The position numbers and the translations under genes were made by a program. Shown here one piece after another: positions 1,276 to 52,229 of a stretch of 64,000 nucleotides of DNA. The notes beneath the pieces were generated by a model. The model did no database searches and was not told the origin of the DNA. It saw only the letters and a program-made list of their open reading frames with translations. The stretch is from Octopus vulgaris (taxonomy: Eukaryota). Where the stretch lies: assembly GCA_951406725.2 (NCBI GenBank), contig OX597818.1:61194001-61258000 (forward strand), in the 5' to 3' direction. How positions within the stretch are numbered: position 1 is the stretch's first letter; each line of letters begins with the position of its first letter.

Positions 1276-1405
1276 ATGGCATTGTGGTTAAGAGCGCAGG
1301 CTACTAACCCCAAGATTCCGAGTTCAATTCCAGGCAGTGACTTGAATAATAATAATAATTTAATTCTTTCTTTCTTTATTTATTTATTTATTATTGATAA
1401 TAATG

Positions 1406-1438
<33 letters not shown>

Positions 1439-1612
1439 TCGTAAAACATCTTAGTAATGAGAACATAGGTTCGAAATTTCCCCAAGACACCTGATGAAGC
1501 ATGGAGGGTATATCAGCTGAAATGTTGTGTTAACAACAAACAAGATTAGGACAAATATCTGTCAAATGTAAATAATGTTCATAATTCCTCATTTCTTAAA
1601 TATAGAACTGTA
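1276..1612 (+). mobile_element. Family D: tRNA-headed non-autonomous element with Penelope-type hammerhead motif (single-arm copy)
   Basis: A-box-like TGGCATTGTGG, B-box-like GAGTTCAATTCC, (AAT)n linker, then GACAC-CTGATGA...GAAATGTT-GTGTT (1486-1531), ending AATATAGAACTGTA; flanked by near-direct repeat aagctaacac (1266-1275) / aaactaacac (1613-1622). Confidence 0.75.
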
Positions 1613-1706
1613 AAACTAACACTGTTGCTCTTTTGAAGGCTATTAGCAACAATAATTAGTAATAGAGACTCAAAGTTACTTATATAATAACATAGACATG
1701 AAATTA

Positions 1707-2232
1707 CATGAGGGCTGATCAAAAAGTATCCAGACTGCTGCTATGGTAACGAATTTAAAGTATGCAGAGTGAAGCCCTTGGCACAGATTCATCTTGAACT
1801 CTGACACACATGCATACTAAGTTGTTATGTTCTTGCTCACTTCGTGTTGTTTATAGCAGTGTTTTGAAGTGAAGTGTGTTTGTACGTGCATGTGTGTGTA
1901 CATGCATGTGTGTGTACGTGCATGTGTGTGTACGTGCATGTGTGTGTGTGCGCACATATCAGTGCATATATGGAAAACATTGAATCCTACTTGAAAGGAA
2001 CGAGATTTCAAGACACTGCAGAAATCCAAGAGAATGTGACAAGGCAGCTGCTCCCTATCTCAAAAAAGGGAGTTCCAAGAATGCTTCCATCAATGGAAAT
2101 GATGCTGGATAAAGATAAAGCGTGTGCCTTCAGAAGAGGACTACTTCAAAGGAGATTAAAGTTCGAACTGTTACGTGTTGTGGTTTTCTTTTCATAGCAC
2201 CATTCCTGATATTTTTGGATCGGATCTCATAT
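1707..2232 (+). mobile_element. Internally deleted Tc1/mariner relic
   Basis: Imperfect TIRs (gagggctgatcaaaaagtatcc / gatatttttggatcggatctc) next to TA; frameshifted transposase C-terminus LKGTRFQDTAEIQENVTRQL...EFQECFHQWK...DYFKGD*. Confidence 0.8.
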
Positions 2233-3087
2233 GGTAATAAATAACAAACTGCATTTGCTAAAATTCACGTAAAAACGAAAAATACAGTGACATAGATACC
2301 AACTTAAAGACATTCAAGATTTAATATAATCATTATGTAAGAAATTGAAGATTAACATCTGCAGATGTTTACTCGTGAATTTATAGAAACAATTTATTAA
2401 CAGAATTAATTAGCATATAAATTTAATTCATTATATTTAGTAAATAACAACTAAATTTGTTAGCATGCCCAGACAAGACAAGGGTGAAAATATAGAAGTT
2501 AAACACTGCAGATGTTCACTAATGAATCTATTATTTGATACTATTAAAGGTAGTATATTAACAATAGTTGATTGGTAATTTAAATTCACATCATCAGCAC
2601 GAAACAATAAATCGAATGAGTGCCAACAGGACTGATGTTATGAGCAAAAAAAAAAAAATATTCAGTGAATTAAAAATTACCTTTGCAGTAAGAAGAGAGA
2701 AACAGAAGCTCAATGACTCATGCTAACCAAATCTGAACATGGAGGCTGCATGTTCAACATGTTATACCTGATTGAATATGATGCATGGTCAAAGATGTTC
2801 CATAAAGATTTTTGCAGTCTTAAGTTTCATCTTTCAACAGTGAAATTTCAGATATTGCAAGGATCAACTTTGCCTTAGATCCACGAGGGATCAACAAAAT
2901 ATAAACCTGTGGATCTTTTTCCTTGTAAATACTGACTATAAATTTCCACAAATGTTTGAGACACACTGACATCTCTCCATAGATGCAATTGCCACCCTCT
3001 GTCAAAGTGGGTAGAAAGCCAAAAAAAGAAAAATAAGCAACAAAAGAAACTAATATCTACAGATTTTTACAACACCCTATTTTTTTT

Positions 3088-3345
3088 TCTTTTACTTGTT
3101 TCAGTCATTTGACTGCGGCCATGCTGGAGCACCGCCTTTAATCGAGTAACTCGACCCCGGGACTTATTCTTTTGTAAGCCTAGTCTCTTTTGCTGAACCG
3201 CTAAGTGACGGGGACATAAACACACCAGCATCGGTTGTCAAGCAATGCTAGGGGGACAAACACACACACACACACATATATATACATATATTCGACGGGC
3301 TTCTTTTCAGTTTCCTTCTACCAAATCCACTCACAAGGCTTTGGT
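3088..3345 (-). mobile_element. Family A SINE, 3' part
   Basis: Reverse complement of the family A body and tail (...ggtgctccagcatggccgcagtcaaatgactgaaacaagtaaa) with internal (CA)/(TA) tract. Confidence 0.85.
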
Positions 3346-3363
3346 ATAGTAAATAATGTATGA

Positions 3364-3506
3364 ACATTATTTACATTTGATGGATATTTGTCCTCATCTT
3401 GTTTGTTGTTAACACATTTCGGCTGATATACCCTCCAGCCTTCATCAGGTGTTTTGGGGAAATTTCGAACCTGGGTTCTCATTCCTAAGGTATTTTTTCG
3501 ATGTTG

Positions 3507-3551
<45 letters not shown>

Positions 3552-3853
3552 TCACTGCCTGGAATCAAACTCAGAATCTTGGGGTTAGTAGCCTGCGCTC
3601 TTAACCACCATGCCATAAGCCCACGGGCATATGGCATAGTGGTAAATAATAATAATAATAATAATAACAACAACAACAACATCGAAAAAATACCTTAGGA
3701 ATGAGAACCCAGGTTTGAAATTTCCCCAAGACACCTGATGAAGGCTGGAGGGTATATCAGCCGAAACGTGTTAACAACAAACAAGATGAGGACAAATATC
3801 TGTCAAATGTAAATAATGTAAATAATTCCTCATGTTTTAAATATAGAACTGTA
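3364..3853. mobile_element. Family D foldback copy (head-to-head palindrome, hammerhead motif in each arm)
   Basis: About 180-bp arms 3364-3546 and 3645-3820 are reverse complements; apex ccataagcccacgggcatatgg at about 3622; full tRNA-like head on the minus strand, deleted head on plus; about 33-nt unique 3' tail. Confidence 0.85.
3730..3772 (+). ncRNA. Minimal type I hammerhead ribozyme motif (Penelope-like); this copy lacks the cleavage triplet seen in sister copies
   Basis: GACAC-CTGATGA-A-GGCTG(gagggtatat)CAGCC-GAAAC-GTGTT: canonical core boxes, 5-bp stem II, stem I GACAC/GTGTT. Confidence 0.65.
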
Positions 3854-6217: not shown

Positions 6218-6474
6218 GGATGTGTATGTTTGCATTTCTAGAGTTGTGTGGCTAATTAGAACAGGTGCTGTTTAGCAAAACTGCAACAGAACTGCTAAGA
6301 TGCTTACCACATGTCAAAAACTGAACATACCAAATTATATTTATCAGGTTTGGATCAACACTACATAGTTCTACCTCATTTGATTGATAACACAAGCTGA
6401 AATGTAAAATTTACAACTAATTTTATCCTTTTAAATGGTTTTGGAAATATGTACGCAAATAGTGATATTAATTT

Positions 6475-6680
6475 GAGCTGGGCGAAGTGTGTAGCCGTAT
6501 TTCATCTGCTGTTACATTCTGAGTTCAAATTCCGCCAAGGTCGACTTTGCCTTTCATCCTTTCGGGGTCGATAAATTAAGTACCAGTTACACACTGGAGT
6601 CGATGTAATCGACTTAATCCCTATATCTGTCCTTGTTTGTCCACTCTATGTTTAGCCCCTTGTGGGCAGTAAAGAAATAG
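6475..6680 (+). mobile_element. Family B tRNA-derived SINE (Meta-like central domain), monomer
   Basis: B-box GAGTTCAAATTCC, then GGTCGACTTTGCCTTTCATCCTTTCGGGGTCGATAAATTAAGTACCAG; tail ...ccccttgtgggcagtaaagaaat. Confidence 0.85.
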
Positions 6681-7063
6681 ATTAATTCAGAAATTGTGTA
6701 TGGATGTTTATTTGCTCAAGAAAGATAGGAGAGAAAGGGATTTTTGTAGATGCTTCTAGGAATGACAATGGTATGATGGCAACTATATTATTGCTGTCTT
6801 TTGGTCATGTAGAAAGTCACCACAAATTTTAACTAAGTAGATGTGTGTGGGAGTGAATGTGTGTGCATGCACACATGTATATAGTCTGTTAAAGCAAAGG
6901 GTACTATTTTGCAAATCTTTTAATCATCACGTTGAGAAGTTAGGGGTACAAATGAGAACAGCTATTTCATATTTTCTTGACAAAAGTCGCGTTTGCCAGA
7001 CCAACAAAATTACTGCCACTAAATTGCTCAGGGATGTGATATATGTGTGTATGTGCATGCACA

Positions 7064-7094
<31 letters not shown>

Positions 7095-8009
7095 ATAGAG
7101 AAAGAGGAGGAGAGAGTGCGTGTGTGTTTGGTGAAGATAGGAGTAAGGAGCACAATGTAGTTAATAGCACCTTATTGATTTCAAGTGGTGAGAGTGGCAT
7201 TGGACCTGACATGCATGGTGGCATGGTAGTGAACCTGGATCAGTGGAGATGGGGTACTTTTGAAGGAGATCCTACATTATTTTGCAATGAGAAGCAGGTC
7301 AGTAACATAAAATCTTTTTAAAGTATGAAATCCTAAACTCCTTTGTGATGGCATCAAGGGATAAAGGAAAACAAAAGTCTAATAGACACTTGACAATAAA
7401 TTTGAGTTTGCAGAGAATTGAAGGCAAATATTATGAGAATCTATAATGCTTTTATTTCAAGACTCCAAGGCAACAATAAATCTTTAGTAGTTCCCATTAG
7501 GAATAACAATGTTTTATCCTATTTGAAGACCTCATCTATATCCTAGTATTATCTTTAAAACTGAAAATCAAAACAGATTTTGTTGCTATAATAGAAATTC
7601 TTCTATTATAATCAACTATTAAACAAATATTGTACTACAATGTCAGTTAATTATATTAAAGCCTACTTTCCTCTCTAATTCAGTTGTATAGTGCAGTAAA
7701 TTACAGTGATAATTTTCAATGACATAATAACATATAAAAAGAAAAACAGCTTTAAAATGTTCGTACGTAAAGGTTGTGTACTTGAATTGCTTATTATATT
7801 ACGTTAACACTTCAAAATCTTTGAAAATCTAGTTCCAATAAGTTACTTATCAAATGGTATCTATATAAACTTTAAAATTATTAAAAATAAGCAAATGTTA
7901 ACAGCAGAATATATTGGAAATGTATCTTAAGAATAATTATTTTTTTAAGTTAAAAATCTTTAATCACAAAATAGGAATTTTGCCTGTATTTGAGGACACA
8001 CAGAACAAT

Positions 8010-28654: not shown

Positions 28655-29072
28655 TAATCATCATTGTTCAACCGTGGTCAAGACAATGGAATTTCACGGT
28701 CCATCATAGCATTACGGAGGCCCTGTTGCTGGATGCCTGTATCCCTGGAGATTACATCAGGGTAGTAGAGTGTGCACCCTCTGGTATCGCGAGCAGATGG
28801 CTTCCAGAGGAGAAGAGTAGAAATTACCTCGTTTTCAGCTCTACAACAATGTCCAGCAAACTGGACTCTTCTACCTTTCACAAGAGATGATACAGGTGGT
28901 AATTTTCCATATATTTGTACTTTGGTTGGATGATACTTCCACGAGAGGTTTTGAGCTCTCATAAGGAGGCGAGTGTAAGTTCCATTCAACCGCCTCTCAA
29001 GCTTCTTTGATAACGTCCAGGTTTCTGAGCCATATAGTAGAATTGGTTCGACTGTGGCTTTGAAGATTGTGG
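28655..29072 (-). mobile_element. 5'-truncated RTE-clade LINE (C-terminal ORF and short-repeat tail)
   Basis: IFKATVEPILLYGSETWTLSKKLERRL...RRVQFAGHC...MMDRE is the typical RTE post-RT region; atgatgattatta tail. Confidence 0.88.
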
Positions 29073-29779
29073 CACTAAGACGCAAGGAGTAAAATGTGTT
29101 GCCTTGAAACACAAAAATTACCAAACACATATTTATGTTCAAGAAACAAATGGAAACTAGTCCTAATACTACACACACACACATCCATTTCTGCCTCATT
29201 TCTGCATTTCTAGTATGATTACTTCAAAATACCAAATCCTGTGAACTAAATTCATAATAATAAAATATGCAGAAATTTTATATACAAATCACTTTTTATG
29301 TTAAAAATTATTCAGTTGGATGCTATTGTTTCTTGCTTATAAAGATGCAACAAAAATAAAGTTTTAAAATATTTTATTTCTTCAAAGTAATAACCTATGT
29401 TGAAGACAGTAAATTTGAAAATACAATAAAATGCAAAGAACAAGAGTTTTATCTTTACTACTTTGTATTGTCCTCAAATAAATATTTCACATTTATTTTG
29501 AATAATTAAATTTGTTATCACCTAACATTCTAATGTGGAATATAGGAAAAAAAAAAAGAGAAATATTGACGATAATGATGATCATTTATATTTTCCAATA
29601 GACAATTATAAGAATGGCATTTATGAGGGGTAAGAAGATGGCAAGAGCATTACAAGAATATACTTCAATACTTCTCCAAGAAATGCTGACATTCTAATGA
29701 CCAAAGAGCATTGAAGTATGAGAATGTTGCTTATAAATTCATAAAGTACAAAAATATTTCTCTCAGTACATATACAACT

Positions 29780-32525: not shown

Positions 32526-33092
32526 TATTATTCATTCACATTTAACAAAGAAAGCTTGGTATTTCATAACACCTAGTGCATTTAAAATTATTAATGTCCA
32601 TAACTAAATAGTTCTGTCCATGATTTTTTTTTTATCATTTCCTTTGACGTTTACCTAATAAAATAAAAAGTTCCAAACTTGTGTTTTGGTTTTTATTTAT
32701 TTTTTTAACTTTACAACTGCTTATTTCCAAAACTTCAAAGTAATGTAATTCCTTGTAGTTTATAGTAAAAAAAAAATAAAATAAAATCCTGTTCCAAATA
32801 TTTTTATCACAAGCACATGAATATTATCTATTATCTAATACTAGACAGAAATGTGATGTAAATAATTCAGAATATAACAATATACTATTTTATACTATAT
32901 ATATAAACCAAGGTTGTGTGATTAAGATAATCACTTCACAAACATACATAGTCATTCATAGACTCACTCAACTCTGTTGAGCACTTCTGAGAAGTGATGT
33001 CTGCAACAACTTTGGATTGACCAATGCCTTACGAGTGAAATTTGAGAAATGGAAACTGTGCGAAAACACATGGATACTATATTGTATTTAAG

Positions 33093-33460
33093 GTTATTTA
33101 CATTATTTACATTTGACAGATATTTGGCCTGAACTTGTTTGTTGTTAAACACAACATTTTGGCTGATATACCCTCCAGCCTTCATCAGGTGAGGGTATAT
33201 TCAAACCTGGGTTTTTTTTTTCCTAAGGTATTTTTTCAATGTAATATTTGTTATTATTATTATTCAGGTCACTGCCTGAAAATCGAACTCGGAATCTTGG
33301 AGTTAGTAGCCCACGCTCTTAACCACTATGCCATATACCTGTGGGCTGGAGAGTTTATCAACCAAAACGTTGAGTTAACAACAAACAAGATGATGAGGAC
33401 AAATATCTGTCAAATGTAAATAATGTGCCTTATTCCTCATCTCTTAAGTATAGAACTGTA
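33093..33460. mobile_element. Family D foldback copy (diverged, right arm internally deleted)
   Basis: Left arm on minus carries the head plus CACCTGATGAAGGCTG...CAGCCAAAATGTTGTGTT; apex gccatatacctgtgggc; right arm ends tatagaactgta; tgtatttaag at 33083-33092 and 33457-33466. Confidence 0.8.
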
Positions 33461-33847
33461 TTTAAGTTGAGTCATCTGACAAACAAAAATCAACAAAATC
33501 AGTAGGAGATCAAGTATGGGGGTACTAATAAACTAAAACCACGAAATTAGTGTCCTAGCAGAGTACGAACCAATGAGTAAAACTAATAAAAGATTTTACA
33601 TAGAAGTATGTCACCACAATGGATTTTTATTACTTTAAATATGTATTATTATTATCAATGGCAGAAGCAGCCACCTGGAGGGAGAATAGGTGCCTCTTGC
33701 AAGTGCACTAAACTTTTATTAGACCAGGAAAGTCTCTTCATTTCTGACACTACAGTGCTCTTCCATGACCTTTTCACAGTACCACAGAGCTAATTCTGAG
33801 GAAAGACATTGAAAGAATTGATCCTGGTATTTTACTGATATCATATC

Positions 33848-51600: not shown

Positions 51601-52229
51601 TCATATGGACAATATTTTATAGATCTGACACAATAACTTTCAGCATTTAGTCTGTGACTGATTTTCATTTACAAGACTTGTTTTTAGTCTTTTGCTGTTG
51701 CTGCATTCAAAAATCTGTATTAGATGCACTTTTAAAACCATGGTAGCAATACTAATATCACTTTCAAGGATTCTACAAGGATCAGCTCATTCTTCCTCAA
51801 CTTTTTCTGCTACACTCATTCACTCACTCATTCTTTTATTCTAGTACTTTTCTCCTTCAGATATTATTACGGATTCATTTGAATCCATCTTAATTTTAAT
51901 GGAGAAAAATTGAGTTTGAGTTGTTTTAAAAAATCCAAGCCATTTAACATGCTAATTGTTGTGTTGACGTGAAAAACAATGAAACCCAGATGCAATTGGT
52001 GAGCCCCTTTTCAAACTGATCACATAAATCAAGTAAAAAACATCCCAAAGGGTTGGGGAAATTCATGACAAAAAGTATTGGAGCTTGAAAAGCATGACTG
52101 TATCTCATTCAACAGAGTGCTTTGGGATGTTAGCTGGTTTTGTGGATTCAAAGCAAAGGGGAAGCGGTGTGAACATGAACCTGGATTTTGTGGGATTTCT
52201 CTTCTGAGATTGACCAAACGTTTAAAGAA

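Follow-up and report, generated by a model that had tools for sequence, protein, structure and literature searches.

The repeat unit present at three loci of a 64-kb stretch of the Octopus vulgaris genome, in which a tRNA-like head precedes a microsatellite, a minimal hammerhead ribozyme and a tail, is very probably the pseudo-LTR of a decayed autonomous Penelope/Poseidon element, since the head follows the stop codon of the element and the ribozyme half corresponds to the coding 5' end of its ORF. The whole model, which adds to this identity that the element makes its own short copies and that its RNA starts at the head and is predicted to be made by Pol III, appears reasonably probable. A further and more tentative proposal is that capture of a tRNA promoter could have produced a ~3-kb Pol III unit purged of TTTT, an element that would be its own SINE with ~100 short copies per ORF-bearing one.

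The repeat unit and its hammerhead

The window, that is the whole 64-kb stretch analysed here (G000:C5:61194001-61258000), belongs to a 2.8-Gb genome. The original prediction placed the order of tRNA-like A/B-box head, (AAT)n, minimal hammerhead and tail at three loci (1276, 3364 and 33093), and this order is borne out at each of them by alignment of the whole arms, the five arms matching one another with 76-96% identity and E from 1e-33 to 1e-79. Two of the three loci (3364-3853 and 33094-33460) are inverted head-to-head pairs and the first copy (1276-1612) is a single forward unit. Although short motifs alone are not above chance in the window, with 16 occurrences of CTGATGA for 10.6 expected and four of the fixed end for 1.4 expected at 2 mismatches, the unit is considered real because the alignment over its whole length exceeds chance. 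The features are as follows:

1266-1275 / 1613-1622: candidate target duplication of copy 1, 9/10 bases alike
1276..1344, forward strand: tRNA-like head of copy 1, A box at 1277-1287 and B box at 1322-1330 with one change each
1345..1438, forward strand: (AAT)n-type microsatellite between the head and the start codon
1439..1612, forward strand: arm of copy 1, a decayed Poseidon ORF 5' end with ATG at 1457-1459, hammerhead and tail to the far end site
1486..1531, forward strand: decayed minimal hammerhead (type I) of copy 1, with stem II broken and CpG changes
3364..3622, reverse strand: reverse arm of the first inverted pair, with complete head (3622-3549), (AAT)n, arm and a hammerhead bearing a 3-base deletion at the cut triplet; stops at the near end site, without tail extension
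3620..3627, no strand: palindrome where the two heads meet at the tRNA 5' end, likely the fold-back point
3625..3853, forward strand: forward arm of the first inverted pair, with a 19-base head stub, a jump to (AAT)n, ATG at 3701 and a tail extension reaching 3853
3730-3772, forward strand: hammerhead of the preceding arm, carrying the 3-base deletion also present in the reverse arm
33083-33092 / 33457-33466: target duplication of the second inverted pair, 10 bases
33094..33340, reverse strand: reverse arm of the second inverted pair, with head, short (AAT)n and arm, to the near end site
33147-33193, reverse strand: hammerhead of the preceding arm, GAAA box broken and G12 lost
33344..33460, forward strand: forward arm of the second inverted pair, from within stem II to the far end site

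The fixed end, noted earlier for all three loci, is confined to the forward arms (three), whose two reverse counterparts stop ~30 bases earlier. Palindromic junctions of the type found at 3620..3627 are seen again in other genome copies, and the length of the microsatellite ranges from 14 to 347 bases (34 copies).

All parts of a minimal Penelope-type hammerhead are present, namely the core boxes, stems I and II, the extra base and the palindrome standing for stem III, and no copy in the window is fully intact, as had been noticed before, each being damaged at stem II, the cut triplet or G12. The reconstructed core plus its two stems has 1,040 exact matches in the genome (492 + 548) for 0 matches of the reversed control, and both stems are 95.7% paired across 44 distinct arms. 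Among these 44 arms, no pair is altered on both sides, which is as expected because copies of one family decay neutrally, and departures from the consensus are mostly due to CpG decay. Neither the hammerhead nor the tRNA head was recognised by Rfam and ARAGORN in the window and the copies.

A 3-base in-frame deletion removes the cut triplet in 11/53 arms and affects both ORF-linked and solo copies (3/20 and 15/90 in the comparison of solo with ORF-linked copies). Ribozyme cleavage as the origin of copy 5' ends is rejected, as only 2/48 internal DNA 5' ends lie within 4 bases of the cut site, and cleavage left no mark on the copies; among the RNA read rows listed, no end pile or back-joint appears at the cut site either. 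The copies suggest that the hammerhead is unnecessary for insertion; it is predicted to act only as a dimer or with the help of a protein, and would be dispensable for copying.

Regarding the surroundings of the unit, another common repeat lies at 3090-3345, into or beside which the 3364-3853 pair is inserted; it seems to resemble an octopus SINE, as presumably do neighbouring repeats. On the reverse strand, an open frame at 28678-29223 seems to resemble the C-terminal region of the protein of RTE-type LINEs, and a weak Rfam match to the histone 3' stem-loop (25 bits, below gathering score) lies at 51866-51911 on the forward strand.

The autonomous Penelope/Poseidon partner

The Penelope partner that the original prediction called for exists in the genome as an autonomous element sharing the whole unit, including the tRNA head. 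A pattern for a Penelope/Poseidon RT motif gave 118 genome matches belonging nearly all to one family. In 11/20 of these RT-motif loci the head, of the same kind as in copy 1, sits right behind the ORF on the same strand after ~40 bases of 3' UTR, as in L166, L177 and others, and it does so in 10/11 of the loci whose ORF match reaches the ORF 3' end. The order at the 3' end of the element is therefore ORF, 3' UTR, head, (AAT)n, ATG in the arm, hammerhead and tail, and at its other end the tail continues directly into the ORF. The reading frame begins at the ATG of the arm, crosses the hammerhead and the tail, and forms in the column majority one frame of ~838 codons. Accordingly, the hammerhead of the pseudo-LTR overlaps the start of the ORF; the frame is preserved through hammerhead and tail in the homologues P0003 and P0135, and the window arm at 3701-3853 translates as the N-terminus of the element, with a weak match to that of P0003.

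This single ORF encodes a PLE-type RT (DKG, MGSPLSP, YVDD) followed by a C-terminal GIY-YIG nuclease, with homologues 38-68% identical. Pseudo-LTRs at both ends and inverted truncated copies complete the Penelope/Poseidon traits. All the copies seen are decayed, differing by ~6.5% (6.3-6.6%) from the column majority; no intact active copy was found among the 150 scored of 4,644 candidates, where the longest open frame is 569 aa. Among the 15 of 59 RNA joints listed, none lies between head and ATG as an intron in the pseudo-LTR would require.

The related elements were considered through 46 non-redundant open frames of at least 300 codons, drawn from 80 related loci. In 10 of these 46 a hammerhead lies 47-435 bases past the stop without A/B boxes there, and the A/B-box pattern gives three matches in 327 kb of the relatives, none at the 3' UTR position. 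Because the 3' hammerheads of the related ORFs lack A/B boxes, head and (AAT)n are likely to be an insertion within the lineage of the octopus element. The query stretch is present in sequencing runs under six organism labels, and the family is therefore common to related species; viral contigs hold no relatives of the element.

Neptune-type PLEs, retrieved by a Pfam GIY-YIG search, were considered as the partner and rejected, hammerhead and tail not being part of the element in 30 loci and 15 extended stretches. This search brought to light a young Neptune-type family (L091-L097, e.g. L091 2245-4587 and L094 768-2204) in which many RT-GIY-YIG frames of 781 aa are intact. The family also has an overlapping frame upstream, up to 479 aa long and lacking a convincing match in Pfam, and, near the element end, a hammerhead-like variant whose core is altered. 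In L098, two frames at 2429-2908 and 6367-7146 that flank a Neptune-type insertion look, from their translation, like a Naiad-type PLE. Besides, seven matches to the ORF 5' probe of the octopus element lie 14-39 kb apart on one strand at G000:C18:46257172-46392299, which suggests a segmental tandem duplication carrying the element.

Copy ends, transcription and the origin of the short copies

The locus was found in 7/40 evenly spaced 10-kb stretches, which corresponds to ~50,000 loci in the genome (Poisson range ~20,000-100,000), and exact 20-mers occur 8,646 times for the arm, 5,148 for the head, 1,013 for the 3' UTR (at a site 80 bases upstream of the head probe) and 82 for the ORF 5' region. 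Head and ribozyme travel together, lying on the same strand in 28/30 and 23/30 head-picked loci, and inverted pairs number 61 among the 110 loci with arms. The 3' ends fall on two fixed sites 27-30 bases apart, one arm being long and the other short in 54/61 inverted pairs, and loose ends occur at both sites in RNA reads too; with the microsatellite internal, there is no poly(A) or simple-repeat tail at the 3' end. Flanking repeats of at least 8 bases (8-14) accompany 29/53 inverted insertions vs. 3.7% in controls. Mobilisation by the Penelope machinery, as originally proposed, is thereby supported, the short copies bearing inverted pairs, a one-sided 27-30-bp tail and 8-14-bp target duplications. 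A tail of 30-40 bp on one end only is characteristic of PLEs (Craig et al. 2021) and was traced to two internal priming sites in the anole Poseidon, whose hammerhead mutants insert normally and whose cleavage required protein, according to the account given in Frangieh et al. (2024, PMC11167929).

At the other extremity, 24 of 30 copies picked with a mid-head 20-mer begin at -5 to +8 of the tRNA 5' end, the remainder extending upstream (3) or beginning at the probe (3); 46/86 of a pooled copy set begin near the same point, and the head is also the starting point of L205 and L306, which are full-length copies. At the 5' end of the head many junctions are palindromic, suggesting that the cDNA folds back. 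The family shows frequent template switching, with jumps from the interior of the ORF to the head, arm or tail giving internally deleted elements (L175, L202, L211, L299 and L312).

In the proposed mechanism, the RNA probably begins at the 5' end of the tRNA part and runs through the element, Pol III being the predicted polymerase. The GIY-YIG nuclease would nick the target, and the two tail sites would serve as internal priming points for reverse transcription, as for the anole Poseidon in vitro. Priming in the first pseudo-LTR would yield a head-to-tail copy of 250-350 bases and priming in the second an ORF-bearing copy, while the short palindrome at the start of the RNA would allow the cDNA to fold back and give the inverted arm.

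Regarding the polymerase, the A and B boxes stand at consensus in the column majority, CpG decay apart, and such boxes would position a Pol III start near the tRNA 5' end. The cloverleaf of the head is lost (fold z +1.3; no ARAGORN or Rfam match), and processing by RNase P at the head is considered unlikely as the head would form no cloverleaf. The sense strand is free of TTTT in the column majority of ORF, 3' UTR and arm. For the 838-codon majority frame, three codon-preserving controls expect 3.0-4.4 TTTT runs, with P(0) of 0.009-0.026, the test covering one ancestral sequence; a dinucleotide (Markov) control, which absorbed the depletion in TT, does not reject chance (P 0.34), and the single TTTT in the sequence used for it is a seam between two segments. 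None of the 46 related ORFs is TTTT-free, with a median of 4.2 TTTT per kb and a total of 407 vs. 362 expected, and three Neptune-type families of the same genome have 1.7-4.7 TTTT per kb. Natural copies, when pooled, hold 21 TTTT for 66 expected, a count that is pseudo-replicated and not relied on. The closest homologues (P0003, P0124, P0128, P0135, P0143 and P0152, with ~55% identity or more for their clusters) are poor in Phe (2.0-2.4%) like the octopus element, and the lack of TTTT may partly reflect a clade-wide composition.

In RNA reads of a related organism the two strands are covered to the same extent, 75-82% of the reads continue into unlike flank, and neither starts nor ends pile up at the head or at the cut site; the reads looked like host read-through, and libraries of this kind may miss short or germ-line RNA. 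Read depth in the head bin is below that upstream, in a bin where a repeat is skipped.

Taken on sequence grounds, the lack of TTTT in the sense strand suggests transcription of the whole element by Pol III, a possibility that we advance with reserve for the full-length element. The RNA could instead come from Pol II acting at an internal promoter, the tRNA piece being a SINE or pseudogene captured at the start site and the missing TTTT a matter of chance or composition. A coding RNA normally requires a cap, the P of 0.34 agrees with chance, and the Penelope of D. virilis is reported to have a TATA-less internal promoter with initiator and DPE (PMC2377424). However, the 5'-end pile, which is the mark of a start site and does not name a polymerase, lies only a few bases from the tRNA 5' end, just where A/B boxes would put Pol III; the boxes stand at majority consensus although the cloverleaf is lost, and none of the 28 related ORFs of at least 500 codons has one TTTT or fewer, so that transcription by Pol II from such a promoter is regarded as improbable.

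Returning to the preferred model, the short copies are likely products of the reverse transcription of the element itself, primed inside its first pseudo-LTR. In its original form the prediction was of a separate non-autonomous SINE borrowing only a 3' end, which is not supported, the head itself being part of the pseudo-LTR of the autonomous element. The head does place A and B boxes at tRNA spacing at the 5' end, as in tRNA-derived SINEs (17/30 loci with a strict pattern). An independent SINE or retrozyme driven by Pol III, with masters of its own and mobilised in trans by the Penelope proteins, would fit the ~100-fold excess of short copies over ORF 5' pieces, the occurrence of one nine-unit headless tandem array (L010), the layout reported for schistosome Smalpha/Sjalpha (PMC6765202) and the seemingly younger age of the solo copies (6.4% vs. 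9.6% for ORF-linked ones, in two sets that were picked differently). It has to contend, however, with the location of the head inside the autonomous element and with the lack of diagnostic positions dividing solo from ORF-linked copies, the commonest base being identical at every column that differs significantly. Moreover, the solo copies end at the priming sites and are likely poor templates, since the anole Poseidon in vitro required RNA extending ~55 bases past these sites (PMC11167929). Such independence is thus doubtful: internal priming explains the short copies without a separate SINE master, and none is evident.

Finally, it is very unlikely that the head lacks a start site and that read-through RNA is copied, with most copies truncated by a snap-back or jump at the palindrome straddling the tRNA 5' end: many junctions are indeed perfect palindromes centred 1-2 bases before that end and template jumps are frequent in the family, but 14/30 copies begin at +1 to +8, inside the right half of the palindrome, several have unrelated flank upstream, the hairpin has just ~4 pairs, and an arrest caused by structure should occur at the 3' rather than the 5' edge of the head.

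Relation to known elements and significance

SINEs combining a promoter and a hammerhead (Smalpha) and the hammerheads of Penelope are already known. For a tRNA head in a PLE pseudo-LTR, no published description was found in the literature, Dfam, Repbase and SINEBase lying outside the search, and none is given in passages of PMC6962438, PMC4758252, PMC8967140 and PMC13282606; the short unit may well be already catalogued under an automatic name.

The closest systems, as judged from the relevant passages of the reports cited here and below, are PAc of Anolis carolinensis (PMC11167929) and the Penelope of D. virilis (Schostak et al. 2008, PMC2377424). Shared with Penelope/Poseidon PLEs are the single RT and C-terminal GIY-YIG ORF starting at the hammerhead, the pseudo-LTRs, the inverted truncated copies, the end sites ~30 bases apart and a hammerhead unneeded for insertion. 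In contrast, the octopus pseudo-LTR has an A/B-box head and (AAT)n, its copies start at the head and its sense strand is free of TTTT, whereas the promoter described in D. virilis is of the LINE-like initiator/DPE kind. With the hammerheads in the PLE pseudo-LTRs of metazoans (Cervera and de la Pena 2014, PMC4209133) the octopus motif has in common the extra base before stem II, G10.1-C11.1, the core boxes, 5-bp stems I and II and the palindrome replacing stem III, as well as copies that are mostly solo or on opposite strands; it differs by its cut triplet GUU, deleted in part of the arms, and by its position behind a tRNA head.

A small-RNA-derived Pol III promoter inside a terminal repeat is also found in the TRIMp3 elements Cassandra, Helenus and Ajax, where it probably came from a SINE insertion (Kojima 2024, PMC10886601). 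These are non-autonomous LTR elements of 0.3-1.3 kb, whereas the octopus repeat belongs to a ~2.9-kb coding Penelope-like element. According to the same source, Pol II is the polymerase expected for coding retrotransposons, the autonomous partners of TRIMp3 included, and Pol III the one expected for SINEs. If true, a Penelope with a tRNA promoter and a terminator-free body would break this division; a coding retrotransposon driven by Pol III would be unusual, and the translation of an uncapped RNA would become a question. The proposed mechanism would also offer a route by which an autonomous element gives rise to a SINE-like family with no need for a separate master, and the copies make up a genome-scale record fitting the internal priming that has been demonstrated in vitro with one Poseidon. 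In host transcripts, long RNA hairpins would be formed by the tens of thousands of inverted pairs, and the short copies will probably be classed as a SINE by repeat libraries.

Schistosome Smalpha/Sjalpha likewise associate a Pol III-type promoter with a downstream type I hammerhead in a short high-copy repeat; they are non-coding and often tandem, their active ribozyme freeing monomers (PMC6765202, PMC8490949), in contrast to the octopus unit, which forms the end of a coding element, occurs as scattered inverted pairs and has no copies ending at the cut site. Short hammerhead repeats related to PLE pseudo-LTRs also include the non-LTR retrozymes of animals (Cervera and de la Pena 2020, PMC7229834; Li, Clavereau and Pollet 2026, 10.64898/2026.07.22.740005), and retrozymes have been proposed as PLE derivatives; a tRNA head is not mentioned in the parts of these two reports that describe them. 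They are defined by tandem units with at least two complete hammerheads, whereas among the octopus loci examined there is one array, the others being dispersed or inverted. This array, which turned up with a deletion-bearing query, spans L010 873-2787 (G000:C2:2.734-2.736 Mb) and consists of nine headless units of ~216 bases, each with arm, hammerhead and tail, in a retrozyme-like arrangement.
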